DNA from: a virus
Lineage: Duplodnaviria; Caudoviricetes
Strand: one strand, 5' to 3'
Virus record (IMG/VR): IMGVR_UViG_3300029982_000009
Length of the DNA: 64,000 nt
The position numbers were made by a program, and so were the translations under genes. Shown here piece by piece: positions 11,918-60,147 of this stretch (position 1 is the first letter of the stretch; every line of letters starts with the position of its first letter). Below the pieces are notes generated by a model. That model was not told the origin of the DNA, made no database searches, and saw only the letters and a list, made by a program, of their open reading frames with translations.

Positions 11918-14900
11918 TTACCACCCTTGGAACTCCGCGCTCCATCCAGCACCGCCATCTCCGCCCGTTCCGGATGTCGTATAGGTTGCCGCCGTGTAGC
12001 CGGAACCGCCCGACGCCGTGCAAGAGGCCAAAGCGCCTCCGCTCCACGTCGGGGTAACCGTCCCGCCCGACCCTCCGCCACCCAGAATGTTGAAAGTTAC
12101 ATTCGTCCCTGTGCCGCATCCTGCGCCAGCCTGTACCACCGTGCAACTGGACAGCGCCCCGGAAGTGACGCCCAGTGTTGCTTTGGGCTGGCTCGTGCAG
12201 GTCCCGCTTGTTGCCGCAGCCTCAGGCACGGTAACCAGGCCCCCAGGACCACCAGCCGTGTAGATGGATGGCCAAGTCGAAACGGCAGCTTGCGAGGAAA
12301 GAACTACGACACCCCCGCCTCCACCTGATCCTGCTCCTGTAGAGTTTGCAGCAGGAGGTGCGCCGTATCCTCCACTCGCGTCAATGATGCCCGTGTGAGT
12401 GCCGTCTGTACCCGTTATCGAGGCGCACATCAGGATGACAGGTGCTCCACCATTTCCGGCTGCTCCCCCTGTGCTACCTCCCTGCTTGCCACCCCCGCCA
12501 TAGGAATATAGGCCATCCAGCCCAGCTCCCAAGGCAAGGAAATTGTGCTTAAGGCCGGAGGAAAGCGTACCTCCATTTCCACCGTTTCCGCCGTTTGCTG
12601 CTCCTGCCGCTCCACCGCCAGTCGTACCAATATTGGTAGCGTAGTAATAGGGTAGCCCAGCAGTACCGGCAGCAGTGCCACCACCCGACCCACCGCCACC
12701 GCTGCTATCCATCGGGTAGCCATTTCCATATCCAGCCATTGCGCCATTCGCTTCAATCGTCCCTGCAATCGTGCAGGCGCCGGATACGTGGACGATCAAA
12801 CCTGCCGCAGAGTTCACCGTCACCGTGTTGCCATAAGGAACGGTGAAGGTCGTGTAATTATACTCGCCGCTCATGTTGCCGCTGGCGTTGGTGTTCGAGC
12901 CATTTGATCCGTCGCCAAAATATTGCAGCCAGCCGGGGACGTTCGGACTCATAGCCGATCCGGTGGCTGCAACGGTGCAACTGCCCCCCAACGTGCAAGT
13001 CTGCCCATTTACCGTGGTCGAACTGTTGGCCAGCGCAGAGTTAGGTATCGCGCTGGCGATCACTGACAAAGATGGTGTAGAGGCAGAGTTGCTCACCGTT
13101 GGAACCAGCCAGGAAGGCCAAGTGCCCGCCGAAGCTGCAAAGTTTGTAACCGTGCCGAATGAAGTGCATCCGGTGCCAGAGGCGCTGGCTCCACTTGGCC
13201 CGAACGTATAGGTGCAAGATGAACCGGCCCCCGCGTTGCCCGTCGACCCGGAAGTCAGTTGCCAGCTTTGCGTCGCCGGGTTGTAGCCGAGAATGTCTTC
13301 CGCCTGCTTGGCCTGGGCGCTATTCCAGCCCTGCGCGTTCAGCATGGGATAGGTCGCATTCCATGCCGCGCACTGTGCGCTTGTGCCGCAGCCAACAACC
13401 ACCGCCCCCATCTTGCTTCCTCCGTTGCCCCCATAAGGTGGCAACCCCATGAACAGTCCATCGCGATGAGGGCCGGAAAGCACCATTCCATACGGCGTAG
13501 TTAGTTGGCCGCGTCCGGGGATATACCCTGTTAAACTAACCGCTGGGTAACCGTCATAAAGTGTCGGATCGTTGTTGTTTGCAAACTGGCCCTCGTAATC
13601 GTTACTCCCGAATTGACCGGCTGATTGGAAGTAGAAATTGGAATGCTGGCCGCCTTCTTGATAGTTATTGAAGCCGAAATTCAACCCATTGATCTTGATT
13701 CTGAAATAATGCGGCTGCTCCAGCGTATCCCCCGTGGCGAACGTACCGACAACCGGAGTCGTGACGATTGCCGATCCATCCACAGCTCCGGTGGCCCCGT
13801 TGTAGACATTTAGAGTTCGTCCTTGCGGGTAGATGTGATACGGATTATTGTTCACAGCCACCACCGGCGTCCCGGTAATGCCCGCACCTGCATTTAAAAT
13901 AGTGCATCCTGAGAGCGCGGTGCCTACCACTGTGGGATAGATCATCGGCGCGGAAGTGTAAGTGATGCCTGTAATCTGGATGGTAGGAGGCGAGTTTACT
14001 GTGTAACTTGTGCCGCCAGTCGCTGTGCAAGCAGTAACTGCGCCGCCGCTCACCGACACCGTAGCCGTACCGCCTGAGCCTGTCAAGGCTGGGGCATAGC
14101 CATAGGACCGCGTATTGATGGTGCCGTTCACTCCGGCGCCGTTGTAAATCGTCAATGTGTTTCCGCTGGCACTGGAAACAATAGGATATATCACCCGGAC
14201 AGTTCCGTCCAGCCCACTCTCTCCGCTGACGGCCATCCCGTTCGTCACACCCGGAACTACCCAATCGGCATCCATACCAAAGCCATAACCGGTAAGTCCG
14301 CCCGCAGCTACTGTCGAGTTATTTGTGAGAGGGTAATTCATCACATCCACGGTGATGTGCGTCCCGTCCGGCACTGCCGTGATATGAGAGCATTGCCAAC
14401 TAGGGTCCACCTTGTCGAACATGCAGACCGTCTGGCCGGTACTGAATCCTGTCGAACTGGCAACAGGGATCGTCACGTTGGACAGCGGCATGGTGTTCGT
14501 GCCGCCCGTTTGGGAGCCGGTGGTTATAGCCGCCGTGGTCGTCGTTGTGGCAGTTGTCAGGCCAAACGTTGAGTCCCAATTGGCTGCGCTGGAGCCGGTA
14601 AATGTGCCTGCACTGATGCCTGAGATATACCCTGCGTTGTAGCCATGCGTAACGTCAATCATGGCCAAGTCGTTCCCCCAGCTTCCGGTGACTCCCTGAG
14701 TCTGCGTGAGGGCAAATGTGCAGGTAGCTCCGCAGGTCTGTGTATTGAGCCTGCCCTCTGGAACATTCCCCGTCTCTCCCAGGCGTGAGCGCCATTCCAG
14801 GCCCTCGTTCTGTGCTAAACCTTGGCCCACACTAAAGGCTCCTGTAAGGAGCGGTATCGAGTCACCTGGCGCATAACTGGTCAAGCTGATGTTATGCCCA

Positions 14901-16222
14901 GCCTGCGAACCCGACGAATGCACCCACATCTGGGTAATCATAGTATTCAGACTGGTTTCATCCCCGTCAAAATCTCGCGTACCCCCGAAAACGGATTGTT
15001 GAAGATTAAGCGCGGCAGCAGGATGCGGAGTATTGCCGCTTCCGGCACTGGTAATCGTTTGAGCAAACAGGGGCTGGGCATAGTGCCGATTATCCCCAAG
15101 TGACATGCCACCATTACAAATCACCTGCGGTGGACCCCATCTATAATCAGTCACACAACCGCTAGTAGTTGTGGCGGCAGGCCCATTCACTGGAATGCCA
15201 TAATCTGTCGTATTTCCCATGCCCCAGGGCTGTGCTTCCGTCTGCGCATAGTTCGCGGGAGCCAGAATGGAACAGGCAACCGACGGAGCGGCGAGGCACG
15301 CCAGAAACGAGTTGGCAATGCCGTTGTTCCCCGTTCCTGCTGGGGTTTGCTGCTGCGCTGCGTTGATCTGGCCGTTCGTAGTGCCAGCCACGACGGTGCC
15401 TGGGAATGTGCCATTGCCAGTGGACCCGCCCAGGGTAATAGACGGTGCGCCGGTGCCAACGCTTAAACCTCCTGGGAGCGTGTTTAATTGTGATGGTCCG
15501 CTACCAGTCTGTGCTCCGTTTGTCATCGCGTTCCAAGTTGTCGAGCCGCCTGGTCCGCATCCAGTGCCGTCTGCTTTGGCATAAAGTCCTGTGCAACTTC
15601 CGCTTGCCCCTCCAATAATTACTGGGTTCACTAGTCCGGATCCTAGAGGTCCAGAGAATAAGGCCTCACCGCCTGAATTATACATCGTTAATAACGGGGT
15701 ACCGGAACCTATAATTATATTAGTAGCCTGGAAGTTACCCCCTGGTGTGGTTGACGTACCATTTGCAGGTAATGCAGCATTAGCGGTCGCTTGGGCGGCA
15801 GTTTCTGCGGTAATAGCTCTGGCGGTTTCACCTGAAAAAATAGTTCGTTCATCGGTTATCGATGTTATCACACTAGCATTTGTTAGAACAATCGCAACAG
15901 GAATATCGGTTACACCAAAATTCGTCGTTTTCACTGCGGGTACGCACGATGCCGAGGTATTAAGATAGATATAATTTAGGGATGAGGCAGTAAGTGTTAA
16001 TGTCCCTCCGCTATATATAAATATTGACCCTTGGCAGTTAACAGTTCCAGCCGATATTTCTGCTTGCAATCCTGTGCCAGCGGTAACCCAATACCCGGGC
16101 GCAGTACCGTTAGAATATTTTGCATTAAGCGCAGAAATTGGAGCAATTTGAGTCGCTGGATTCTGCGCAAGGCTAAAGGGGCCTATACAGGCTAACATTA
16201 TTGATAAAATTATTTTTCTCAT
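11918..16222 (-). CDS. signal-peptide-bearing Gly/Thr-rich tail-fibre-like protein
   Basis: MRKIILSIMLACIGPFSLA signal peptide; Gly-rich GGxGG C-terminus; overlaps baseplate wedge stop (ATGA); GC-rich body. Confidence 0.75.
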   Translation of the reverse strand: MRKIILSIMLACIGPFSLAQNPATQIAPISALNAKYSNGTAPGYWVTAGTGLQAEISAGTVNCQGSIFIYSGGTLTLTASSLNYIYLNTSASCVPAVKTTNFGVTDIPVAIVLTNASVITSITDERTIFSGETARAITAETAAQATANAALPANGTSTTPGGNFQATNIIIGSGTPLLTMYNSGGEALFSGPLGSGLVNPVIIGGASGSCTGLYAKADGTGCGPGGSTTWNAMTNGAQTGSGPSQLNTLPGGLSVGTGAPSITLGGSTGNGTFPGTVVAGTTNGQINAAQQQTPAGTGNNGIANSFLACLAAPSVACSILAPANYAQTEAQPWGMGNTTDYGIPVNGPAATTTSGCVTDYRWGPPQVICNGGMSLGDNRHYAQPLFAQTITSAGSGNTPHPAAALNLQQSVFGGTRDFDGDETSLNTMITQMWVHSSGSQAGHNISLTSYAPGDSIPLLTGAFSVGQGLAQNEGLEWRSRLGETGNVPEGRLNTQTCGATCTFALTQTQGVTGSWGNDLAMIDVTHGYNAGYISGISAGTFTGSSAANWDSTFGLTTATTTTTAAITTGSQTGGTNTMPLSNVTIPVASSTGFSTGQTVCMFDKVDPSWQCSHITAVPDGTHITVDVMNYPLTNNSTVAAGGLTGYGFGMDADWVVPGVTNGMAVSGESGLDGTVRVIYPIVSSASGNTLTIYNGAGVNGTINTRSYGYAPALTGSGGTATVSVSGGAVTACTATGGTSYTVNSPPTIQITGITYTSAPMIYPTVVGTALSGCTILNAGAGITGTPVVAVNNNPYHIYPQGRTLNVYNGATGAVDGSAIVTTPVVGTFATGDTLEQPHYFRIKINGLNFGFNNYQEGGQHSNFYFQSAGQFGSNDYEGQFANNNDPTLYDGYPAVSLTGYIPGRGQLTTPYGMVLSGPHRDGLFMGLPPYGGNGGSKMGAVVVGCGTSAQCAAWNATYPMLNAQGWNSAQAKQAEDILGYNPATQSWQLTSGSTGNAGAGSSCTYTFGPSGASASGTGCTSFGTVTNFAASAGTWPSWLVPTVSNSASTPSLSVIASAIPNSALANSSTTVNGQTCTLGGSCTVAATGSAMSPNVPGWLQYFGDGSNGSNTNASGNMSGEYNYTTFTVPYGNTVTVNSAAGLIVHVSGACTIAGTIEANGAMAGYGNGYPMDSSGGGGSGGGTAAGTAGLPYYYATNIGTTGGGAAGAANGGNGGNGGTLSSGLKHNFLALGAGLDGLYSYGGGGKQGGSTGGAAGNGGAPVILMCASITGTDGTHTGIIDASGGYGAPPAANSTGAGSGGGGGVVVLSSQAAVSTWPSIYTAGGPGGLVTVPEAAATSGTCTSQPKATLGVTSGALSSCTVVQAGAGCGTGTNVTFNILGGGGSGGTVTPTWSGGALASCTASGGSGYTAATYTTSGTGGDGGAGWSAEFQGW

Positions 16223-49726: not shown

Positions 49727-49974
49727 TGTCTTCTCCGAAACAACGGATGATTAAAGAAAAAGTCGTTAAAATTTACCCTGATGCCAAATTGCGTCGCAAG
49801 TATGGAATATATTATCGAGTTTTTCGCTCGCCTATGCTAGATTCTTGGATGGAGGAACCAGGCCTATTAACTTTTTGCACCCCAATTGATGGTTGGTTCA
49901 GATCATCCGACAAGGCGTGGGAGTATGCCTGGAAAGAAATACAAACAGATTTAATTGAGAGGTTTGCATATTGA
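49726..49974 (+). CDS. small paralogue family A
   Basis: KEKVVKIYPDA...DKAWEYAW...IERFAY. Confidence 0.75.
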   Translation: MSSPKQRMIKEKVVKIYPDAKLRRKYGIYYRVFRSPMLDSWMEEPGLLTFCTPIDGWFRSSDKAWEYAWKEIQTDLIERFAY

Positions 49975-50486
49975 AAAATATTTTTCTATCTTCAGATGCC
50001 CATTTTTCGCATCGTAACATTATTAAGTATTGCGATAGACCATTTTTTTATGTCGAAGAAATGAATGAGCGACTCATTCAGAACTGGAATGAGGTTGTTC
50101 GAAATGATGATGAAGTTTATTATTTAGGTGATTTTGGATTACACAGTCCTGAAGTGCTTATGCCATTTAGAAATCGATTAAATGGTAATTGGAAAATGTT
50201 TATCGGCGGCAATCATGATCGAAATTCATTATTGCAAAGTCCGGGACTAGCCGAGCAAGTAGTTAAATTCAGTGAGAAAAAAGTTGTTAATTTTGAACTA
50301 GACGGTATTCCTTTATGGTTAAGTCATTGCCCAGCAAATGTTCTACCTAACGATCCAATTAATCTTTACGGGCACACTCACGATCATGTTCCTATGCTAG
50401 CGGGTAACAACCGTAAAATTAACATTGGGGTTGACGCTTGGAATTTATATCCAGTAGCTTGGGAGCAAATTAAAGCCTTGCTATAA
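49971..50486 (+). CDS. calcineurin-like metallophosphoesterase
   Basis: SDAHFSH, LGDF, GGNHD, GHTH, NIGVDAW; TTG start. Confidence 0.88.
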   Translation: MKNIFLSSDAHFSHRNIIKYCDRPFFYVEEMNERLIQNWNEVVRNDDEVYYLGDFGLHSPEVLMPFRNRLNGNWKMFIGGNHDRNSLLQSPGLAEQVVKFSEKKVVNFELDGIPLWLSHCPANVLPNDPINLYGHTHDHVPMLAGNNRKINIGVDAWNLYPVAWEQIKALL

Positions 50487-50488
50487 TT

Positions 50489-51097
50489 TTAGGAGCCCTC
50501 TTCAATATTAAAATAGTTAGATGCATCCTGAATATAATACCGACTTAACGCAAAATAATTTCCATGAATAATAATTTCATTGCCGGAGGCTAACGCTTCC
50601 GGCAAATTGTCGTGTCTAAAACCCAAATTCTTAATGAAAGTTAATGCTTCTTCATGTGTTGGAATATTTCCGCGTTTTGAAAATGGATTTCTCGGGGCAA
50701 TCCAATTATGTAATTCTTTTTGAACAAGTCGACTAATACCGATATCCGAAACATGCTGACTCCAAGTAAAAGAAAATCCATCCTCTGGAAAAATCAAATA
50801 TGGATTTCCGAATAGGTAGACTTCTGTTATATTTGGTGTGCAGCTTCTTGAATTTGATCTTAACGCGGTAAATCCGTTTGTTTTAAGAATATGATCCAGC
50901 ATCGCCTGCTCTTGTAATGATTGCCCTAGCGGCATTCTAGTATTAGGTGTCGCCGCATTAAAAAATGGTTTTCTTGTATCAATACCACGATATAAAAATG
51001 TATTAGCGGCTTTGACACCGGAAATAAATTCCTTACAGGAATCATTTATTCGGGTTAATGTATCATTTATACTGATTTCAAATTCGTCGGCTTTCAT
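50489..51097 (-). CDS. putative ADP-ribosyltransferase-fold protein, paralogue 1
   Basis: FLYRG...LRSNSRSCT...FG.PY.IFP..GF.FTWS...GNEI.I.G.Y. Confidence 0.6.
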   Translation of the reverse strand: MKADEFEISINDTLTRINDSCKEFISGVKAANTFLYRGIDTRKPFFNAATPNTRMPLGQSLQEQAMLDHILKTNGFTALRSNSRSCTPNITEVYLFGNPYLIFPEDGFSFTWSQHVSDIGISRLVQKELHNWIAPRNPFSKRGNIPTHEEALTFIKNLGFRHDNLPEALASGNEIIIHGNYFALSRYYIQDASNYFNIEEGS

Positions 51098-51227
51098 GTA
51101 ATTATTTAGCTCGATTACGAGATAAGCCCGTATTGTTCTTAAGAGCCACGGATGTAGCGAGTTAGAATTAAGATATACCTTTTAAGCTCTTAATTGTTAT
51201 ATTTTTCATAAATGGCTAAATATATTT

Positions 51228-51415
51228 ATGTTCAAGTCATTCAAATATCGATTAACTCCAACCAAAGAACAAGAGAAAACTCTTGTGGAATGGCAAGGGC
51301 AGTTGAGATTTGTTTGGAATAATTTTCTTAAGCAAAATATTGATAGATATCAATTGGAAAAGAGATTCATCTTGGAAACAGGAAGCCACTTCTCTTTAGA
51401 GAAGTGGTAGTTCAC
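51228..51415 (+). mobile_element. tnpB: internally deleted IS200/IS605-family tnpB remnant with right end
   Basis: MFKSFKYRLTPTKEQ..TL...G..RFVWN HTH_OrfB-like start joined to GAAGCCACTTCTC-TTTA-GAGAAGTGG-TAGTTCAC right-end hairpin. Confidence 0.75.
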
Positions 51416-51443
51416 CGAATTACCTCATCGCATAAATATCTAT

Positions 51444-52376
51444 ATGACAACTTTTCCAGAACTTAATCCAGGCGAAACGACAAGTTTTCCGAGAGGACAG
51501 GCCCCCGAAATTCAAGCCAATCTTTTTTCAACGTATTCTAGGGTTGATAGAAACAGACTTATACAAGTGTGCAAATTTATCGAAGAACATTGCTCCGAAT
51601 TTTTAGCATCGGCCAAAGCCGCCAATAGATTTTTATATCGAGGAATTAAAACTTATGATTCGCCTTCAAAAATTTTTTTAGGCAGCCCACGCAATGACCG
51701 ACGTTCTAGAGATACCGATCCAGCGGTTCAGTTAATAGTCGATGAATATTTAACATTGCAAGGATTTAAAGCACTACGATCAAATAGTATTTTTTGCACT
51801 GGAGAAGAGCAGAATGCGTTGACATATGGCGATCCATATATTATTTTTCCTATTAATGGATTTGAGTATACCTGGAGCCTAGAGCATCTTGATTGGGTTA
51901 TTCAACCGCGCTTCTTATCCCCGAATTATAGTGCCCTGCGAAATATTTTTAACGACATCTATTATAGTACCCGAGACGATACACACAAGGCAACCCTTGC
52001 AAATATTGCTATAAAAAATGCTGTGGAAATATATGTTAAGCCTTTTACGTGGGGCGGTAGCGGAGATGGCTATTTTTATGATCTTGCCCAGTTAAGAAAG
52101 TTTATGCAAATTGCTGCAAAATTATCGGCAACTGTTGAAGAAGTTCGTCATTATTTTACACCCGAATTAAGAGCAAAAATTAATAGACTAATATCAAATT
52201 CACTTAATCCAAAAATTGCATCCCAACAATTTGTCAAACTGAATAAATTATTGAAAACTCGGCTAGATACCGCGATTAAATTAGATCACGAAGTTATGAT
52301 TCACGGTTCGTACGTAGCAGTAGAGTCAAATAAATTTAATGAAGCATTGGGTCAATATTTTCTTAATATTAATTAG
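51444..52376 (+). CDS. putative ADP-ribosyltransferase-fold protein, paralogue 2 (with insertion)
   Basis: FLYRG...LRSNSIFCT...YG.PY.IFP..GF.YTWS...DHEV.IHG.Y. Confidence 0.6.
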   Translation: MTTFPELNPGETTSFPRGQAPEIQANLFSTYSRVDRNRLIQVCKFIEEHCSEFLASAKAANRFLYRGIKTYDSPSKIFLGSPRNDRRSRDTDPAVQLIVDEYLTLQGFKALRSNSIFCTGEEQNALTYGDPYIIFPINGFEYTWSLEHLDWVIQPRFLSPNYSALRNIFNDIYYSTRDDTHKATLANIAIKNAVEIYVKPFTWGGSGDGYFYDLAQLRKFMQIAAKLSATVEEVRHYFTPELRAKINRLISNSLNPKIASQQFVKLNKLLKTRLDTAIKLDHEVMIHGSYVAVESNKFNEALGQYFLNIN

Positions 52377-53062
52377 GGCCGCCTACCAGAAAGTTTTGGA
52401 TATTTTCTACCTATTCCCGCAATAGCTTTTGTTTTAACACCCTTCATAATAGATTGCGCTTCTGGACTATTTGGAGACAGCAGGAAATTATTTAATTTTC
52501 TGCGGGCAATATCTAGATCTTGATCAATCATATTTTCATTATTCTGTACTAACGAAAAATATCGCCCAAATAATAATTCATATAATGCTATATTCTGTTT
52601 AACAGAAGAATATGCTTCCTGGAAATAATCAAGGTCTACTTTGCGTTTATCTGCACGATCTAGTGCCGTTTGATATCTTGATTCTATTCTCGCTCTTGCA
52701 ATAGATTCGTCAACGTCTACAAATATCATGAATGTTTGATAATAACATTCTTTTAATTTTTTGTTCAATCGAATTATTACGTCTGCATTTCTTCCGGTAG
52801 TATTAATAATTAATCCTAAATAATCATTGGCCCATAGATTAAAACGTTTTTCGGTAGTTTTACCGGCTGTCTCATAATCTGATAATGTTTTTAAATGTAG
52901 TTTGGTTCGATCTATATCTAATTGTTTGAATCCTCGGGTCTCGAGACCAAATTCTTTTTCAATGGTAGTTTTTCCACTACCGGGCGACCCGACTAAAAAT
53001 ATAGCCTTAAAGTTAAAATTATCGTGGACGCCCTCATTTAAAATCGCTTCAGATATTTTCAT
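52373..53062 (-). CDS. P-loop kinase (zeta-toxin/AAA_33-like)
   Basis: EGVHD...FKAIFLVGSPGSGKT, IINTTG, MIFVDV....A..R. Confidence 0.75.
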   Translation of the reverse strand: MKISEAILNEGVHDNFNFKAIFLVGSPGSGKTTIEKEFGLETRGFKQLDIDRTKLHLKTLSDYETAGKTTEKRFNLWANDYLGLIINTTGRNADVIIRLNKKLKECYYQTFMIFVDVDESIARARIESRYQTALDRADKRKVDLDYFQEAYSSVKQNIALYELLFGRYFSLVQNNENMIDQDLDIARRKLNNFLLSPNSPEAQSIMKGVKTKAIAGIGRKYPKLSGRRP

Positions 53063-53075
53063 ATTAATATTTAGT

Positions 53076-53744
53076 CTAGTCTGTTATGCCAAAATATTTT
53101 CTAGCTGCCTCGCCATACAACGACCCACTAATAGCGATGTATTGGCCATTGATTATTATTTCGTTTCCAATTCTAAGAGCCATATCAAAATGCTTATTGC
53201 CGAAAAATTCCCATTTATCAACAAATTTTTTAGCTTCATCACGGGTGATAGCATCTATTCTTCTCGAATCATTAAAATCTTTTAGTTCCCAATATAGATT
53301 GGAATTACTTCCGATATCCTTAATTCTTGCACTCCAGGTAAAATTAAAACCTGTCAACGGAAAAATTAAATAAGTTGCTCCAAATGACATTTCCACTTTC
53401 GACGTGGTACAAATAGAATTTTTTCGTAGGGCGGGAAAGTTATTCAATTCAAATATATGATCCAAGAGTTGTTGTCCATATGGGCTAGCCCATATGGACA
53501 ACCTACTTATGGGTGTAAGCCCGTGGAAAATAACAGGCCGGTTACTGATACCTCCAATACCCCGATATAAAAAGGTATTATTCTTCTGCATAATAGGTAG
53601 TACATCACAATGTGTTGTTATAAAATCGAGAACTTTTTCTAATTTTTCTGAGTTGTAATTTTTAATGCCACCGTAGTTATCGGCCCAGTCATCTACTGTA
53701 CTGGTATTAATGTCACTCGGATTTATTATTTCGTATATTTTCAT
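53076..53744 (-). CDS. putative ADP-ribosyltransferase-fold protein, paralogue 3
   Basis: FLYRG...LRKNSICTT...FG..Y.IFP..GF.FTWS...GNEI.I.G.Y. Confidence 0.6.
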   Translation of the reverse strand: MKIYEIINPSDINTSTVDDWADNYGGIKNYNSEKLEKVLDFITTHCDVLPIMQKNNTFLYRGIGGISNRPVIFHGLTPISRLSIWASPYGQQLLDHIFELNNFPALRKNSICTTSKVEMSFGATYLIFPLTGFNFTWSARIKDIGSNSNLYWELKDFNDSRRIDAITRDEAKKFVDKWEFFGNKHFDMALRIGNEIIINGQYIAISGSLYGEAARKYFGITD

Positions 53745-53749
53745 TGTAC

Positions 53750-54424
53750 CTAGCCTGTTATCCCAAAATATTCTTTAACTGCATAGATATATGGATAATC
53801 TGATGATTTAATAGCAACATATTGCCCATTAATTGTAATTTCATTACCTACCCAAAGAGCTTGATCGAAATTATTATTTCGAAAGTCCCACTTTTTAATA
53901 AATTTATTTGCGGCATCCTGGTCTAATCGATTAATTCCTATATAGGAATTATATAATTTTTTCAGCTCATTATAAATTTCATTATTACCACCTACATCTT
54001 TTATAATTTTGCTCCAGGTAAAATTAAATCCATTCACCGGAAAAATATAATATATTTTTCCAAAATTTACATATTCATCGGGTTTGGTAGTTGCACATAT
54101 TGAATTTCTTCTTAATGAAATAAATCCTGTTAGCTTAAATATTTTATCTAATATCCATTGTTGATCTTTTCCCATACCATACGGTTCCCGCGTAACCGGG
54201 GTCGCCCCCAGAAAAATAGTCGGCGAGGGCGCGTTAATTCCGCGATATAAAAATTTATTCTTTGATTGCATATCTTTTACGGCCTGACTACAATGTTTAG
54301 ATATAAATTCGAAAACATGTTCCAATTTTTCTTGCTCGTAATTTTTAAAACCACCAAACCCGTTGGTCCAAACATCGAGGTTATCCTCGTCTTCAATTGG
54401 TTTCAATAATTCGAATATTTTCAT
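53750..54424 (-). CDS. putative ADP-ribosyltransferase-fold protein, paralogue 4
   Basis: FLYRG...LRRNSICAT...FG..Y.IFP..GF.FTWS...GNEI.I.G.Y. Confidence 0.6.
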   Translation of the reverse strand: MKIFELLKPIEDEDNLDVWTNGFGGFKNYEQEKLEHVFEFISKHCSQAVKDMQSKNKFLYRGINAPSPTIFLGATPVTREPYGMGKDQQWILDKIFKLTGFISLRRNSICATTKPDEYVNFGKIYYIFPVNGFNFTWSKIIKDVGGNNEIYNELKKLYNSYIGINRLDQDAANKFIKKWDFRNNNFDQALWVGNEITINGQYVAIKSSDYPYIYAVKEYFGITG

Positions 54425-55071
54425 TATATTCCTATACCAAATCGTTTTACTAGTTCGGTATGATACTTATCGGCCAATGCGATATATTGACCATGAATAG
54501 TAATTTCATTTTTACTGTGCAGAGCCATTGCAAAATTATTTTTTGAGAATTGCCAGTATTTAACAAATTTTTTTGGAGAACTAACTAGCTTTTCGCGTGC
54601 CAACGAACTTGCCAATTCGTTATTTGCTCCAATATCTTCAATTTTTGGACTCCATGTAAAATCAAAACCCTTAACGGGAAAAATATGATATAATTTACCG
54701 AATCCGTATAAATCTGTATTGCTGCCCGTGCAACAGATGCTATTTGAGCGTAATGAAGAAAATCCACACTGTTGTAATATTTTATCTAACAGCGGTTGAT
54801 CATATTCCGCGCTGTATGATTCACGCGCTGTCGGCGTTATACCATGAAATACATTGGGTACGCCAACATCATACCCTATTCGACGATATAAAAATGTTTG
54901 CGTATCTTGCATGGCTGTAACAGCTTTTTTACAGTGCTTATCAATAAAATTCATTATTTCTCTAGTAGGAGAGTTGTATACTTTTTGCCCGCCATGCGTT
55001 TCATCCCATAAGTCATCCGGATTCTCTTTTTCAAAATCTTTAAATGGTTTCATTAATTTATTTAGTCGCAT
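54424..55071 (-). CDS. putative ADP-ribosyltransferase-fold protein, paralogue 5
   Basis: FLYRR...LRSNSICCT...FG..Y.IFP..GF.FTWS...KNEI.IHG.Y; start trimmed to ATG 55071. Confidence 0.6.
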   Translation of the reverse strand: MRLNKLMKPFKDFEKENPDDLWDETHGGQKVYNSPTREIMNFIDKHCKKAVTAMQDTQTFLYRRIGYDVGVPNVFHGITPTARESYSAEYDQPLLDKILQQCGFSSLRSNSICCTGSNTDLYGFGKLYHIFPVKGFDFTWSPKIEDIGANNELASSLAREKLVSSPKKFVKYWQFSKNNFAMALHSKNEITIHGQYIALADKYHTELVKRFGIGI

Positions 55072-55117
55072 ATTATATTTATTGACTTTTATTAGAAATA
55101 TAATGTATAATAAAAAC

Positions 55118-55663
55118 ATGAAGAATTATACAAATATTATGCTCGATCTCGAGACCTGTGGAACTATTCCAAATGCGAAAGTATTATCAATTTCTGCGGT
55201 AGCATTTGATCCGTTTGATTATACAGCAGATTTATCAGATAATCCAACCTTAGATTTATTGCTGTCTTTAGACGATCAGGAGAATCGTTATGAAGATCCC
55301 GCAACTCTAGAGTGGTGGGCCAAGCAAGATCCATCGGTTATTGAAAAGATTTTCAGCGATACCGGACGGGTATCAGTTGAACATGCACTAGCCCAGTTAA
55401 CCAAATTTGTATGGAATAAGGACCGACTTTGGGCACAAGGAATCGCAGTTGATTTTCCAATGCTTGATAATTTATATCGAGAACACAGCAAGAATATTCC
55501 TTGGCAGTATTGGCGTGTAACAGATAGCAGAACATTACGTGCATTGACGACTACACAAGAATATCCGGCTAGTCATGACTCGCTCGACGATTGCCGTCAG
55601 CAAATTAGAGCAGTCACAGAAGCATTGCATAAATTGGGTGTTGAAGAATTTTCCCGCAAGTAA
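55118..55663 (+). CDS. 3'-5' exonuclease (DEDDh, ExoVIII-like)
   Basis: MLDLET, VDF.ML, DSRT, HDSLDDC; leaderless after TTGACT-N18-TATAAT. Confidence 0.88.
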   Translation: MKNYTNIMLDLETCGTIPNAKVLSISAVAFDPFDYTADLSDNPTLDLLLSLDDQENRYEDPATLEWWAKQDPSVIEKIFSDTGRVSVEHALAQLTKFVWNKDRLWAQGIAVDFPMLDNLYREHSKNIPWQYWRVTDSRTLRALTTTQEYPASHDSLDDCRQQIRAVTEALHKLGVEEFSRK

Positions 55664-55682
55664 TTTGCTATATAAGACAAGT

Positions 55683-55704
55683 GAAGGAGCCAATTGGCTC
55701 CTTC
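55683..55704. terminator. perfect 22 bp palindrome between convergent genes
   Basis: GAAGGAGCCAA|TTGGCTCCTTC. Confidence 0.65.
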
Positions 55705-55705
55705 C

Positions 55706-56428
55706 TTAGTCTGTGACTTTAATTCCGTTTGGCCCTAGATTTCCGCTAACGCCTATTTTTGATAACTCTAAGGTATTAGGATGATTGCCGAAATATCTGA
55801 ACAATAGGTGCTCAATATCTTTATATTGTCCAATTTCTAATGCACTACTAAATTCTTCTAACATTAGATTATACCGATAAAAGACCAACGCTGTTCGATC
55901 AGCCGGCCAACTCCACAATCTCGACATAAACTGAAAATTTAACCCACCGGTAACCTGTGCTGGAAATTGGCTATTTCTTCGGGCGGCAAACATATATTTG
56001 TTCCTATGTTCAAACGTTTCCACTGAGAACCCGTCGGATAAAAAATACCTTCCACTCAATTTAAATACTCGATCAATATTTTCTAATAATTTCGGCCGGC
56101 TAACTACAAAATCTAAGGTCTTACCAGTTACAAGTAATTCTGTATACGATTTTACAACATCCCAATTATCGGTTGATTTATAAATTTGTTGAACCTGGAT
56201 ATCGGTATTATAATTAATAAGTCCTAATAGATACGGTTTAAGAATTGCAGATTCTTCTTCTGTAATACTGCTTTCCCCACTGCTTTCGGAAAGAATAATT
56301 TGCGCATCGGGAATTTTATCTTTCACACTTTTTAATGTATTAATAGTTTGCTCTAATCGTTGTTCGGCAGAATAGACACCATGCTTGGTATGCAATGCGC
56401 TACCGATTAAAAATAAAGTTTTGATCAT
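55706..56428 (-). CDS. putative glycosyltransferase-like protein
   Basis: F.I.SA......Y..EQR.EQT..T..SV..KIP...I.L.ESS...FKLSGRY pattern. Confidence 0.45.
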   Translation of the reverse strand: MIKTLFLIGSALHTKHGVYSAEQRLEQTINTLKSVKDKIPDAQIILSESSGESSITEEESAILKPYLLGLINYNTDIQVQQIYKSTDNWDVVKSYTELLVTGKTLDFVVSRPKLLENIDRVFKLSGRYFLSDGFSVETFEHRNKYMFAARRNSQFPAQVTGGLNFQFMSRLWSWPADRTALVFYRYNLMLEEFSSALEIGQYKDIEHLLFRYFGNHPNTLELSKIGVSGNLGPNGIKVTD

Positions 56429-56429
56429 A

Positions 56430-57269
56430 TTACTCCAAATTGAAAAGATATGGATTAGCCTGCGCCAATCGATTTCTATAAAAAATATAATGTTCTAATA
56501 ATTCATGGCGCCCACCGGAGATTGCCGCGGTTTTTATGTCGGACAACGAGCGCAGTTCATCTAAGATATGAGGCGGCAATTTTGTTTTATTTAGTAATTC
56601 ATCCCGTGTATAACGGTAATGTTCTACCTTTATATTATGATTTGTATTAATAAAGACACTAAACAGCCGTTCTACGACAAAGGTAAAATAAGGGAGTGCG
56701 GCGTTAGGTCCATAATGAGCGGCGGTTTTAAACATCATATCGTAATCGGCTGAATCCGTTTTTACCATATCGATAAAAAACTTTAAAAAATCAATATACT
56801 GTTTCCAAAATATTTTATTTCCAACAAAATAATTACAAAGCGCGAATGTCTCTGAATCCATCCAAAGTTTATTTAAATCTACAGATATGTGCATCTTATT
56901 AAGATTTCGTTGAATCAAATCTTTTAGTCCGGGATGACAATTCTCGCCTTGAGTAATTACACTAGGAGATAGACTTTCATTAATCGGAGTTGGATTAATA
57001 AAATAGACATCGGCTCGATTCGGATCTATTTCGATAAAATCGATAAATTGCTGGCCAGTAATATTAGTCTTTGCTTCAAACTTTGGACTAACAAATCCCC
57101 ATAGATCTAATCCGTGCTGTAATGCATATGTCTGTCCTGGTTCAAAAGATTGGTATTCACATAATTCGGGATGCAAATTTTCTAAATTATTATAGGGAAC
57201 AAACGGCAATTTAACTTTTTCCAGTTGTTCCTTTAGATAACATATTTGATATACTTGTATTTTGCTCAT
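56430..57269 (-). CDS. putative glycosyltransferase-like protein
   Basis: YQI.Y, EL.EY, WGFVS.KF, F..CNYFVG...FW, ERLF pattern. Confidence 0.45.
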   Translation of the reverse strand: MSKIQVYQICYLKEQLEKVKLPFVPYNNLENLHPELCEYQSFEPGQTYALQHGLDLWGFVSPKFEAKTNITGQQFIDFIEIDPNRADVYFINPTPINESLSPSVITQGENCHPGLKDLIQRNLNKMHISVDLNKLWMDSETFALCNYFVGNKIFWKQYIDFLKFFIDMVKTDSADYDMMFKTAAHYGPNAALPYFTFVVERLFSVFINTNHNIKVEHYRYTRDELLNKTKLPPHILDELRSLSDIKTAAISGGRHELLEHYIFYRNRLAQANPYLFNLE

Positions 57270-57302
57270 GTAATATTATAGCACATTGAAATAAATACTT
57301 AT

Positions 57303-58013
57303 ATGAAAATTGCAGAATTATTATTTGAGGGTGGTAATGCCTTTGTTGGCGACTTAGCTGTAATTCGTATTGCTAGAGCCCAAGTAAAACCTACGGTCGC
57401 TTTTCTAGAGGGTATTACCGGTCTCTCGCTTTTGAATAACATGCTCGGATCAACGGGTATTAAAGAAACGAGTGGAGATATCGATCTAGCAGTTGATAGG
57501 TCGGAAATAACTAAAGATGAATTATTAGTTACTATCAGACAATGGACAGATGCTCATAATATGACGGCCGTTATGCCTGCAAAAAAATTAGGCAGTAGTG
57601 TAACGATGCGTTGCCCGATCTCTGGCAACCCGAAAAATGGTTTCGTTCAGGTAGATTTAATGTTTGTATCCGACATTGAATTTGCGAGATGGGCAATTCG
57701 TGCGAATCCTGATAGTAAATATAAAAATCTAGTAAAGAATAAGCTATTATATAATCTTGCAAAGTCGATGAATTTACGATATCAAGAGCAGGAAGGATTA
57801 ACTACTCTTGACACAAAGAAACTTCTTAAAAATGGCAATAATCCAGATTTCATTGCGAAAAAATTATTGAATGCTAAAGCAACGAGAAAAGATATTGAGT
57901 CAGTTGAAAGTATAATGGCTGCATTGAAAAATGATCCTAAAAAAGAGGAAAAACTTCGATTTGCTTATCCTGCGGTATTGGCAGAAGTCGGAGTTGATTT
58001 GAGATCGATATGA
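57303..58013 (+). CDS. Pol-beta-superfamily nucleotidyltransferase
   Basis: LGSTG.K..SGDIDLAVD (GS...DxD) and FVQVDLMF third Asp. Confidence 0.75.
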   Translation: MKIAELLFEGGNAFVGDLAVIRIARAQVKPTVAFLEGITGLSLLNNMLGSTGIKETSGDIDLAVDRSEITKDELLVTIRQWTDAHNMTAVMPAKKLGSSVTMRCPISGNPKNGFVQVDLMFVSDIEFARWAIRANPDSKYKNLVKNKLLYNLAKSMNLRYQEQEGLTTLDTKKLLKNGNNPDFIAKKLLNAKATRKDIESVESIMAALKNDPKKEEKLRFAYPAVLAEVGVDLRSI

Positions 58014-58597
58014 AAATATGCGAAATTGAGAACTCAACTCCTCTGGAACGATTGGAGATGGCAGAAATGGTAGCAAATAATATTCAAGACAATTGTTCTA
58101 CGGCTATCAAGTCATTTAATGTATGTCAGAATCTTTTGTTTTCCGGAATTTATAACCACACCGAATTTTCATTTACCAGCCACTCGCCGGAACATAGAAC
58201 GCCCAGAGGTATGTCAAAAGAGCAACAACTCTATCTTGATTCATGCCTAAGAATAATGGGGTTTACTGCATTACGAAGTAATAGTATGTTTTGCATTGCC
58301 GATTATATGCAAGCTAAAAATTTTGGAGAATTGTATATAATTTTTCCTTGTGATGGATTCTCGTTTACATGGAGTAAGAAACGAAAATATATGTCCTGGA
58401 TTAATACCCCGCATGGTCCTTTACTTGCTAGCAGAGCTGATGCGTCGGCAACAATTTCTATTTTTGGATTAAAGAATAAAAATTTTGTCAATGCGGTTAA
58501 CTCGGGGAATGAAATATTAATACATGGTGACTATTATGCGTTGAAAGTATATACAGATGGCGCCGCACGGGTTTTGAAAAAATTAGGTATATTCTAG
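58010..58597 (+). CDS. putative ADP-ribosyltransferase-fold protein, paralogue 6 (Arg lost)
   Basis: LLFSG...LRSNSMFC...FG..Y.IFP..GF.FTWS...GNEI.IHG.Y. Confidence 0.55.
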   Translation: MKICEIENSTPLERLEMAEMVANNIQDNCSTAIKSFNVCQNLLFSGIYNHTEFSFTSHSPEHRTPRGMSKEQQLYLDSCLRIMGFTALRSNSMFCIADYMQAKNFGELYIIFPCDGFSFTWSKKRKYMSWINTPHGPLLASRADASATISIFGLKNKNFVNAVNSGNEILIHGDYYALKVYTDGAARVLKKLGIF

Positions 58598-58609
58598 GTA
58601 AATACTAAT

Positions 58610-60112
58610 ATGCGATACTTTGAATTGTTTGAATCGAGTCGAGGAATTTTTGTAAGAACCCAGGAAGCCGCAGCGGGCAAAACTATTACGGTTTCAAATA
58701 AGGAAGGAGAAGTTTTAACGGCAATCGGAAATTATCTTCTTCCCGAGACTGGATTGTTTTATGCAAATGATGATGTTTCCAGCCTTCCGGCTAAAGCAAG
58801 ATTGCTGCCTTTAGGCGAGCAGAAAAAATTATTAAAGACCGGGCAGCAAAAAGTAATGGATGCATTGGAACAATATAAAATCACCGCAAAAATTTTACCC
58901 GCCAATTGGCATATTACGAATACTGCGGGAAGAGCGGCAATGATTACTCTCTGGACAAATAGCCGTAATCAAAAAGTTGCGTTTGTAAAACTATTTGTAT
59001 CCAAGAGTCCGAGTGCAATCCCATTTTATTGGAGCAATAGCAATTTCGCTCGAGATACCGGGTTTGCATTATCAAATGATGCTCAACAAAAATCTGAATT
59101 AAATCTTAAACCATTAACCGTTGTTGGGGTCGATGCGAGATTTACAATTGACGATCTATTGGAACAAATTGACGAAAATATTATAACCCATACCGAACTT
59201 CCTTTAGAAGTAATTGAGCAGGTGCCCAAACTTCTTAAGAATATTCAAGTCGGGTTTTCAAGTCCTATTGCAAATGCAGCCCAGTATATTAGTTCATATG
59301 AAGTTGATTTAGGTGAAACCGGGGCTCCGATTGCATTAATGACCGGTCATTTTATATCCGGCGCATACCAACAAGTTGAGGAACAATTATTGAAGCCAAT
59401 GGGATCAAGCTGGGCAAAGATTAAAACCTGCTCTTTTCCGATGGCAGGCAACGAACAGTTGGTAGATAGTTATTTAAACATTGACGCTGATACAAAATTA
59501 GGTATTAGTTCAAAAAATTCTAAAGGCGGCGCCGCTGCTAGCATTACAAGTTTATCCTCGGTAATTGAAAAAAATCCTGAAAGATTTAAAGATCTTGTTA
59601 AAAAGAAAAAATACAAATATCTATTTAATGTAATTAATCTTTTAAAGAATAAATCCGCAATTGATGGTCCACTTGAATTAGGTGTTATGTATGGAATTAT
59701 TGACGCCGCTGATTTGATTAAAATTAAGGCGGCCATTGATGATCCCAATCTTGTTAAAACCGACGTAACTAAAAAGCTGCAAAAATTGTTGGCCAATAAA
59801 ATTTATAACCCAGTTACCACAAGTCCTAATTATACTGTCGGGTTGCATCTTCTTACGGTAGTTGCTCATTTAGTAACTGCTCACCTTAATGAGCAAGAAG
59901 ATTTAGTTACCGAATTTTTCAAAGCTATCTTAGCTAGGTCAAATATGATTCAGGTAATGACCAAAATAAGTAAGACCGGAACCGGGGCAGCATTCACAGA
60001 TTTCAATGTTATCTGGCCACCAGTATTTCAGGGAAAGGTCCAATTTCAGTCCCAAAAAGCGTATTCAGCGAGTGCAAGGCCAAACGGACGAATATGTTTT
60101 AAAATTCACTAA
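58610..60112 (+). CDS. hypothetical late protein, possible PD-(D/E)xK nuclease C-terminal domain
   Basis: E..AP.AL...LVDSY......GISSK..GG motif spacing; TAAATA-N5-ATG. Confidence 0.5.
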   Translation: MRYFELFESSRGIFVRTQEAAAGKTITVSNKEGEVLTAIGNYLLPETGLFYANDDVSSLPAKARLLPLGEQKKLLKTGQQKVMDALEQYKITAKILPANWHITNTAGRAAMITLWTNSRNQKVAFVKLFVSKSPSAIPFYWSNSNFARDTGFALSNDAQQKSELNLKPLTVVGVDARFTIDDLLEQIDENIITHTELPLEVIEQVPKLLKNIQVGFSSPIANAAQYISSYEVDLGETGAPIALMTGHFISGAYQQVEEQLLKPMGSSWAKIKTCSFPMAGNEQLVDSYLNIDADTKLGISSKNSKGGAAASITSLSSVIEKNPERFKDLVKKKKYKYLFNVINLLKNKSAIDGPLELGVMYGIIDAADLIKIKAAIDDPNLVKTDVTKKLQKLLANKIYNPVTTSPNYTVGLHLLTVVAHLVTAHLNEQEDLVTEFFKAILARSNMIQVMTKISKTGTGAAFTDFNVIWPPVFQGKVQFQSQKAYSASARPNGRICFKIH

Positions 60113-60147
60113 CGAAAAGCCCACCTATCTAGGTGGGCTTTTCGTTA
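60110..60147. terminator. bidirectional terminator
   Basis: 18 bp arms TAACGAAAAGCCCACCTA-TC-TAGGTGGGCTTTTCGTTA. Confidence 0.8.

Follow-up and report, generated by a model that had tools for sequence, protein, structure and literature searches.

Six paralogous genes for predicted ADP-ribosyltransferase-like proteins with a candidate head-packaging leader in an uncultured T4-superfamily phage

A six-member gene family

The window analysed here, the full 64,000-nt stretch of IMG/VR record IMGVR_UViG_3300029982_000009, is a piece of the genome of an uncultured T4-superfamily phage, and identical sequence is present on many metagenomic contigs of up to 293 kb. T4-type genes in the window include those for a gp6-like baseplate wedge protein (phrog_10646, E 1e-244), a gp25-like protein, a gp5-like hub and a gp46-like nuclease. 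Between positions 50489 and 58597 the window also carries six paralogous genes, lettered A to F by position, which are the subject of this report. Taking sequence, predicted structure and published virion proteomics together, we consider it fairly probable that they belong to a large, phage-specific and unannotated branch of the ADP-ribosyltransferase (ART) fold superfamily, and that their products are made late, tagged with a short leader, packaged in the head and delivered to the host as NAD+-using enzymes.

Paralog A (50489..51097, minus strand) predicts a protein of 202 aa beginning MKADE, which matches the family profile at E 9e-82 and phrog_11975 at E 3e-22. Paralog B (51444..52376, plus strand) predicts 310 aa beginning MTTFPE and matches phrog_11975 at E 8e-36. 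Paralogs C (53076..53744; 222 aa, leader MKIYE), D (53750..54424; 224 aa, leader MKIFE) and E (54424..55071; 215 aa) lie on the minus strand, with C beginning 6 nt after the stop codon of D. The longest open reading frame (ORF) of paralog E reaches 55119, but its start is most likely at 55071 (MRLNK), because a TAAATA box stands 4 nt before that ATG and a gene call made independently on an identical contig likewise gives 215 aa. Paralog F (58010..58597, plus strand; 195 aa, leader MKICE) has an ATG that overlaps the stop codon of a nucleotidyltransferase gene, and carries Ser in place of the first-position Arg (LLFSG), which is the loss of Arg noted in the initial annotation.

The six ORFs align end to end with 32-38% identity. 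Their 32 invariant columns include positions of the L-Y-R-G, L-R-x-N-S, Y-x-I-F-P-x-x-G-F-x-F-T-W-S and E-I/V-x-I-x-G-x-Y motifs, in the order in which the initial annotation, which had placed all six frames correctly, had listed them. With a profile built from the six copies, those six frames and no others are recovered from the window (E 4e-75 to 5e-107), and the 9 kb that follow its end on an identical longer contig likewise yielded no additional copy.

Late-type starts

The window contains 13 instances of the arrangement TAAATA-N5-ATG, where 2.2 would be expected. Among the genes that it precedes are those for the gp6-like wedge protein and another large structural protein, as well as paralog A (51095-51108, minus strand, with the box at 51103..51108, 5 nt before the ATG) and paralog B (51433-51446, plus strand, box at 51433..51438). 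The arrangement is also found upstream of a kinase gene (box at 53068..53073, minus strand), of the nucleotidyltransferase-paralog F pair (box at 57292..57297, plus strand) and of a gene for a 500-aa protein. The box of paralog E (55076..55081, minus strand) is an N4 variant, 4 nt before the revised start, and stands at the head of an E-D-C-kinase operon in which C and D follow without a box of their own. A strong terminator-like hairpin at 60110-60147 ends the plus-strand operon.

A TAAATA late promoter had been assigned to all six copies. This applies directly to A, B and E, whereas C and D follow E, and F overlaps a nucleotidyltransferase gene that has one. Late transcription of the paralogs is supported, as far as promoter-like sequence can indicate, by a type of start common to the baseplate genes.

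Extent of the family

All six copies match phrog_11975 (E 3e-18 to 8e-36), a group of unknown function. An exhaustive profile search detected 5,236 clusters (50% identity) in metagenomes at E<=1e-3, all unnamed, and many of these sit on contigs of 100-360 kb. Among cultured phages, members were found only in the jumbo phages Agrobacterium Atu_ph07 and Ralstonia RsoM2USA, and a megablast search of the island against cultured phages gave no match. Each giant-phage genome carries 6-17 copies. The jumbo-phage survey of Iyer et al. states that group 2 phages encode 'several ARTs' (PMC7824862).

Some relatives are fused to a zeta-toxin-like kinase (phrog_12810; a 778-aa protein in Atu_ph07), others are fused to GNAT domains, and some contain two modules. 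One ORF of 2,645 residues on a 357-kb phage contig (L007 4001-11938) contains five ART-like modules, with K-[VI]-x-E-S retained in the short linkers between them, and from its sequence it is a candidate for a polyprotein cut by the head protease. A Pfam scan of 20 longer relatives found no ART family; apart from a GNAT domain in one fusion and a weak GNAT match in the 2,645-aa protein, no additional domain was detected.

Predicted fold

The AlphaFold2 model of paralog D, built from an alignment of 72 family members, has a pLDDT of 92.6 and a pTM of 0.89. The row for paralog E in this alignment is the frame 54472-55119, which includes the N-terminal extension and leaves out the last 16 residues; this concerns a single row of the 72 and alters no conclusion. 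In an exhaustive VIA-align search with the paralog D model, the top match was BC2332 of Bacillus cereus (2aua, Z 5.6), followed by the rifampin-modifying Arr (Z 4.8). Next were cholix toxin, exotoxin A, diphtheria toxin, AvrPphF-ORF2, DarT, tankyrase and PARP16, and further down TreX, CopC, OspC3, CteC, Tpt1 and SopF, so that ARTs make up about half of the top 50 rows. When the top 500 chains from Foldseek were re-aligned, all 26 of the 26 listed rows with Z>=2.2 belonged to the ART superfamily, and 2aua reached Z 6.5. The prediction of an ART-like fold is thus supported, at the level of a model, as a split beta-sheet ART core. It is accepted because the matches are enriched almost exclusively for one superfamily, although the individual scores are modest.

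BC2332 aligns over 123-125 residues (Z 5.6-6.5, rmsd 3.7-4.2) at an identity of only 10-11%, and it is a bacterial protein of unknown function without a leader or a packaging context. Arr (2hw2, 9iaf; Z 4.3-4.8) has a minimal ART core of similar size, and R61 of paralog D falls near its first-position His as judged from alignment ranges only. However, Arr is an H-Y-D enzyme acting on an antibiotic, with no common S-x-S or Glu strand motif and no sequence match to the family. The nearest named lead in a sequence-feature atlas search was DUF2441 (0.83), and BC2332 is presumably itself a DUF2441 (PF10386) protein. DUF2441 belongs to the Pfam ART clan (PMC7955679).

The model of paralog B (pLDDT 90.9) has the same core order plus helices at 160-279. 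A fold search with it, intended as a replicate, returned only generic helical bundles, drawn in by a four-helix insert of about 100 aa, and is uninformative on the core.

These rankings bear on what the proteins might act upon. The closest solved structures (BC2332, Arr, DarT and Tpt1) are not protein-targeting toxins, and the small-molecule and nucleic-acid ARTs are the nearest structures overall. The substrates of packaged ART-fold enzymes might be nucleic acid, NAD-derived nucleotides or small molecules instead of host proteins, as DNA is for DarT, RNA 2'-phosphate for Tpt1/KptA and rifampin for Arr. The Z differences among ART clades are about 1-3 units, and are unable to place the family. 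We regard this alternative as unlikely, though it is taken up again below with the motifs and the partner genes.

Conserved motifs and ART class

Residue numbers below are those of paralog D, and column counts are from the 72 members, which are about 30% identical. In the paralog D model, Y60-R61-G62 is within a strand (60-63), N107-S108 follows a helix and is found just ahead of the next core strand (109-112), and the invariant E195 opens the penultimate strand (196-199). The order and approximate spacing of Y-R-G, S-N-S and a lone Glu in this predicted model fit the R-S-E triad. An aromatic-Arg pair ([YF]-R) is present on strand 1 in 64/72 members, the exception within the window being paralog F with Ser, and L-Y-R-G-I is the same as in T4 ModB. 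The R61 column contains R in 64, H in 5 and S in 3 of the 72 members, and alternation of R and H is typical of ART position 1. All members share R79, R105, P129, W137, E195 and G200. Two positions ahead of the Glu, 41 members have G, 6 have K, 6 have H and 4 have E; the six copies read G/D/G/G/K/G there, in agreement with the G/K/D given in the initial annotation.

An hhalign comparison of the family with eight ModA/ModB sequences gave a weak score of 23.8 (P 0.008), which 0 of 40 column shuffles reached. The comparison profile was thin, as the ModB homolog search gave only six proteins. The result is one collinear alignment in which LYRG pairs with LYRG of ModB, and E195 is matched to the later Glu of E-Q-E. 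For the R-S-E class, as first assigned, the aromatic-Arg strand is present and the in-register alignment with ModA/ModB is suggestive but weak, whereas [QE]-x-E is incomplete and S-T-S appears as a possible variant, S-N-S. On this evidence we lean slightly towards an R-S-E-like family.

The same residues can be read in favour of substrates other than protein, since the additional invariant R79 and R105 could hold phosphates. Set against this, Y-R-G, S-x-S and E-hydrophobic-x-hydrophobic-x-G-x-Y resemble the motifs of protein-modifying R-S-E enzymes such as ModB.

They also bear on whether the proteins are enzymes at all. Internal head or ejection proteins with an ART-like fold could be non-enzymatic, serving as DNA-condensing filler or as stoichiometric inhibitors of defence like T4 IPI. 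T4 internal proteins are a precedent for diverse, leader-tagged cargo without enzymatic activity (PMC3012670), one copy in the window lacks the Arg, H or S occupies the R61 column in 8/72 members, and the canonical [QE]-x-E is incomplete. The 6-17 copies per genome and the high mass-spectrometric coverage in Atu_ph07 also fit such a role. However, R79, R105 and E195 are invariant and N107/S108 nearly so at about 30% identity and across more than 5,000 clusters, which is the pattern of an active site, and the variable part is limited to one insert. A non-enzymatic role is accordingly considered quite improbable.

That insert, a helical segment at residues 140-188 directly before the Glu strand, has a mean pairwise identity of 0.23 among the six copies compared with 0.41-0.51 in two core blocks. 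In paralog B and many relatives the segment is expanded to a four-helix bundle of about 100 residues, which in paralog B sits between the fourth core strand and the Glu strand. By analogy, the insert stands where R-S-E enzymes have their target-recognition (ARTT) loop, and it may set the choice of target.

Two cysteines are nearly invariant, C45 (68/72) and the C111 column (63/72). Cysteines are not known from any ART motif, and these two might serve in a disulfide, in metal binding or as a redox switch.

The N-terminal leader

The family begins with a short tail, M-[KR]-[IL]-x-E, in which M1 is present in 72/72, [IL]3 in 67/72 and E5 in 68/72 members. Residues 1-4 are disordered in the paralog D model and the tail lies outside the fold. 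Products in the window that open with the broader form M-[KR]-[ILVYF]-x-E are paralogs C, D and F, the kinase and the nucleotidyltransferase, the 500-aa protein encoded at 58610, and those of two genes in the structural module, one of which is a phrog 'virion structural protein'. On other metagenomic jumbo-phage contigs, starts of MRINEI, MRIYEI or MKINEI are found on family members and on unrelated neighbours. The claim that most of the six copies carry M-K-I-x-E was overstated, as it is exact on C, D and F while A (MKADE), B (MTTFPE) and E (MRLNK at the revised start) deviate.

T4 Alt is made late, is packaged (about 40 copies) and injected, and loses a propeptide of six residues by cleavage at I-T-E-6 (PMC5694885); its N-terminus in the T4 record reads MELITELFDE. 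Members of the family in Atu_ph07 begin MRWEQLTE or MKWHQLTE, ending in L-x-E, and RsoM2USA_404 begins MTTFKEYLTE, which is near the capsid-targeting sequence MKTYQEFIAE of a T4 internal protein. Atu_ph07 encodes a gp21 homolog. By analogy, the leader may be cut as the Alt propeptide is. The tag also recalls the capsid-targeting sequences of T4 IPI-III, where a short N-terminal (I/L)-x-E tag that is cut by the head protease is carried by unrelated, fast-diversifying cargo. The family tag is however mostly 5 residues (M-K-I-x-E) rather than 10, and it is attached to enzyme-like folds rather than small basic proteins.

It could be argued that the products are late cytoplasmic enzymes that never enter the head, with an N-terminal motif that serves translation or stability, and M-K starts are indeed frequent in AT-rich genomes. 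However, the junctions of the five-module polyprotein read K-K-V-N-E-S, K-K-V-I-E-S and L-G-L-N-E-S. The motif is thus kept at internal positions, on which the initiation of translation has no bearing, and so is no artefact of translation starts; it also matches the T4 protease site and the Alt propeptide. This alternative would further require that detections of the family in virions represent carry-over, a point addressed in the next section.

Homologs in the virions of Atu_ph07

A profile search identified gp54 to gp63 of Atu_ph07 as ten consecutive members of the family. The numbering of gp55-gp63 is set by calculated masses that match the published values to 0.01 kDa. The CDS of gp54 is cut in the locus, and gp54 was placed by gene order and its length of 490 aa, a BFVD entry of that length matching the model. 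All ten are listed in the ESI-MS/MS table of Atu_ph07 virion proteins with 3-15 unique peptides and 12-47% coverage, together with gp53, which combines an ART-like domain and a zeta kinase (31 peptides), and gp65, a homolog of the nucleotidyltransferase (10 peptides) (PMC6102473 Table S5). CDS 31-76 of Atu_ph07 include 29 virion proteins that the authors describe as of unknown nature and do not link to ARTs (PMC6102473). The earlier suggestion of virion packaging is thus supported, through homologs, by a published proteome, which makes it the strongest element of the overall reading, and the likeness of the leader to the I-T-E-6 propeptide of Alt is in line with it. For the present phage, packaging would follow by analogy.

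Carry-over into the preparation has some basis, as the Atu_ph07 virions were purified by PEG only, and RecA-like, SSB and RNR proteins are listed at low counts (PMC6102473), with terminase listed too. Against this, the ten consecutive members and both partner enzymes were all detected, 9 of the 10 members and both partners with 7-31 unique peptides and gp55 with 3, compared with 1-3 for the obvious contaminants. Together with the conserved polyprotein junctions, these counts make an unpackaged, cytoplasmic location very improbable.

Two other Atu_ph07 proteins have weak matches below the cut-off. The gp66 protein (L001 1562-2536) has a K-x-D-G start and a match to RNA ligase (E 0.002), and gp67 (L001 756-1475), which was detected in the virion with 67% coverage, has a match to the LPD3 polyvalent-protein domain (E 0.004).

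Partner enzymes

Two genes with the leader are interspersed among the paralogs. The first (52373..53062, minus strand; leader MKISE) predicts a zeta-toxin-like P-loop kinase (Pfam Zeta_toxin E 5e-13; phrog_12810 E 2e-19) and closes the E-D-C operon. Its product is homologous to the middle part of Atu_ph07 gp53 (E 4e-21), a fusion of 778/790 aa with an ART-like domain. The second (57303..58013, plus strand; leader MKIAE) predicts a DUF6267-like nucleotidyltransferase of the Pol-beta fold, with a G-S...D-I-D motif and an atlas structure match to DUF6267 at TM 0.90. It is homologous to Atu_ph07 gp65 (E 3e-10), and its gene overlaps paralog F (ATGA), so that the two are translationally coupled. 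An unrelated phage contig of 360 kb (L006 8724-10591) likewise has a DUF6267 gene immediately ahead of a family member. The recurrence of this order, and the presence of the gp65 homolog in the Atu_ph07 array, suggest that the DUF6267 nucleotidyltransferase and the ART-like paralog form a functional pair. Interleaving with other cargo enzymes, as first described, is upheld by these conserved partners, whose homologs were detected in Atu_ph07 virions.

The partners also bear on nucleic acid or nucleotides as possible substrates, in that a packaged kinase, nucleotidyltransferase, phosphoesterase and exoribonuclease would form one toolkit with the ART-fold enzymes. In support, the kinase is fused to an ART-like domain in Atu_ph07, the Pol-beta nucleotidyltransferase is coupled to a member here and in another phage, the gp66 match points weakly to RNA, and two neighbouring genes predict suitable enzymes. 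One of these is an Rv2179c-like 3'-5' exoribonuclease (55126-55663, plus strand; Pfam E 2e-30) and the other a calcineurin-like phosphoesterase (49971-50486, plus strand; phrog_547 E 1e-43). However, both are without the leader, and the exoribonuclease is preceded by a near-consensus sigma-70-like promoter (55082-55111) and not by a late one.

Proposed mode of action

Under the reading we favour, namely packaged and injected enzymes that use NAD+, the paralogs would be transcribed late from the same TAAATA-N5-ATG starts as the baseplate genes. The M-[KR]-[IL]-x-E tail would direct each protein into the prohead core, as the Alt propeptide (MELITE, cut after I-T-E) does, and would be removed by a head protease of the gp21 type. 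Once matured to about 190-300 residues, the enzymes would share the head with the DNA and pass into the host on infection, alongside two partners with this tail, the zeta-like kinase and the Pol-beta-type nucleotidyltransferase. NAD+ would most likely be bound through the Y-R-G and S-N-S strands together with the invariant Glu, ADP-ribose would be moved from it to host molecules, and the poorly conserved helical segment before the Glu strand may give each paralog its own target. Paralogy, motif conservation, late-type starts and the presence of homologs in Atu_ph07 virions are observations on which this scheme builds, as is the class of the modelled fold; cleavage, packaging in the present phage, NAD+ chemistry and the targets are what it would predict.

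Several results count against this reading. Every structural Z is below 8, a range where a common arrangement alone may explain a match. Foldseek of the paralog D model against the PDB gave nothing significant (best E 0.19), and against Swiss-Prot models it gave only weak OspC and DarT rows, none of them significant. A PDB sequence-profile search with the six copies returned nothing at E<=10, no Pfam family was matched by the six copies or, at E<=5, by the 72 aligned relatives, and the DUF2441 profile matched none of the 72 members at E<=5 and nothing in the Atu_ph07 genome at E<=10. That R61, S108 and E195 would line an NAD+ pocket is deduced from strand order and the weak profile alignment. 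The S-T-S motif reads S-N-S (S106 in 51/72, N107 in 69/72 and S108 in 68/72 members), and of [QE]-x-E only the second Glu is kept, the first Glu/Gln being missing and mostly replaced by Gly. The leader is degenerate in 3/6 copies, a head protease gene was not found in the window, and the limited purification of the Atu_ph07 virions belongs here also.

Relationship to known systems

T4 Alt has long been the single textbook head-carried phage ADP-ribosyltransferase. The present family resembles Alt, ModA and ModB in that all are phage-encoded ART-fold proteins, and it shares late synthesis and a propeptide-like tag with Alt. The likeness to ModB extends to the L-Y-R-G-I strand and to a similar Glu strand (E-hydrophobic-x-I...G-x-Y). 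However, sequence comparison with Alt gives nothing significant, and the family does not match PF26816, the Pfam model for ModA/ModB. It has G/K-N/H-E where Alt and Mod have E-x-E, S-N-S where they have S-T-S, and a variable helical insert before the Glu strand. Its members are single domains of about 200 aa with 6-17 copies per genome, whereas Alt is one protein of 682 aa.

ART-PolyVal (PF18760) modules are likewise ART-fold modules in phage proteins that are predicted to be injected, and some relatives of the family are also multi-modular. Foldseek matches to ART-PolyVal are weak (E 0.08-0.6), there is no profile match, and ART-PolyVal is not a family with R-S-E-type motifs. By any profile test, the family is not in Alt/Mod, DUF2441, Arr or ART-PolyVal.

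The principle is already known from T4 Alt, and what is new is limited to an unannotated ART-fold family that is expanded and probably co-packaged with a kinase and a nucleotidyltransferase. The logic of Alt would apply here to a whole family of thousands of clusters, with no Pfam model and no functional label, whose members had been listed in a published virion proteome without being recognised. Should the enzymes prove active, they would represent a large, naturally diversified set of effectors for host takeover or counter-defence in the first minute of infection, and the short leader, being conserved, would offer a practical way to recognise injected cargo when phage genomes are assembled from metagenomes. 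A cultured model is available in Atu_ph07, with Agrobacterium tumefaciens C58 as its host. A bolder proposal, which we put forward only tentatively and hold to be doubtful, is that the family ranks among the largest effector families of giant T4-like phages still to be recognised. It would comprise a packaged minimal ART-fold set with a swappable, target-setting insert, delivered as one injected module with the zeta-like kinase and the DUF6267 nucleotidyltransferase. Some phages would make it as polyproteins, and the chemistry would be one not yet described for phage ARTs, on nucleic acid or NAD-derived nucleotides or by coupled phosphorylation and ADP-ribosylation.

Other genes of the island and window

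The last gene of the plus-strand operon (58610..60112; leader MRYFE, TAAATA-N5-ATG at 58599-58612) predicts the 500-aa protein. Pfam and PHROG searches gave no match for it, Atu_ph07 and RsoM2USA carry no homolog, and the atlas search gave only unnamed viral clusters. The protein is a candidate for a further cargo protein of unknown fold. Two adjacent genes in the middle of the island (55706-57269, minus strand) predict proteins of 240 and 279 residues, and are without a leader, a Pfam or PHROG match or a late-type start.

Between A and B, a 60-residue ORF (51228-51410, plus strand) preceded by TAAATA-N5-ATG predicts the HTH_OrfB_IS605 N-terminal domain of a TnpB/IS605-type transposase (Pfam E 2e-14). 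As it stops after about 60 residues, this fragment is probably the remnant of an insertion, which may have helped to rearrange the island.

Elsewhere in the window, a 1,434-residue ORF (11918-16222, minus strand) lies in a stretch of 55-58% G+C, compared with about 36% for the genome. Its neighbours are a gene for a CHB_HEX_C/Fn3-repeat protein and the baseplate wedge gene, and it probably encodes a fibre or repeat protein of odd composition.

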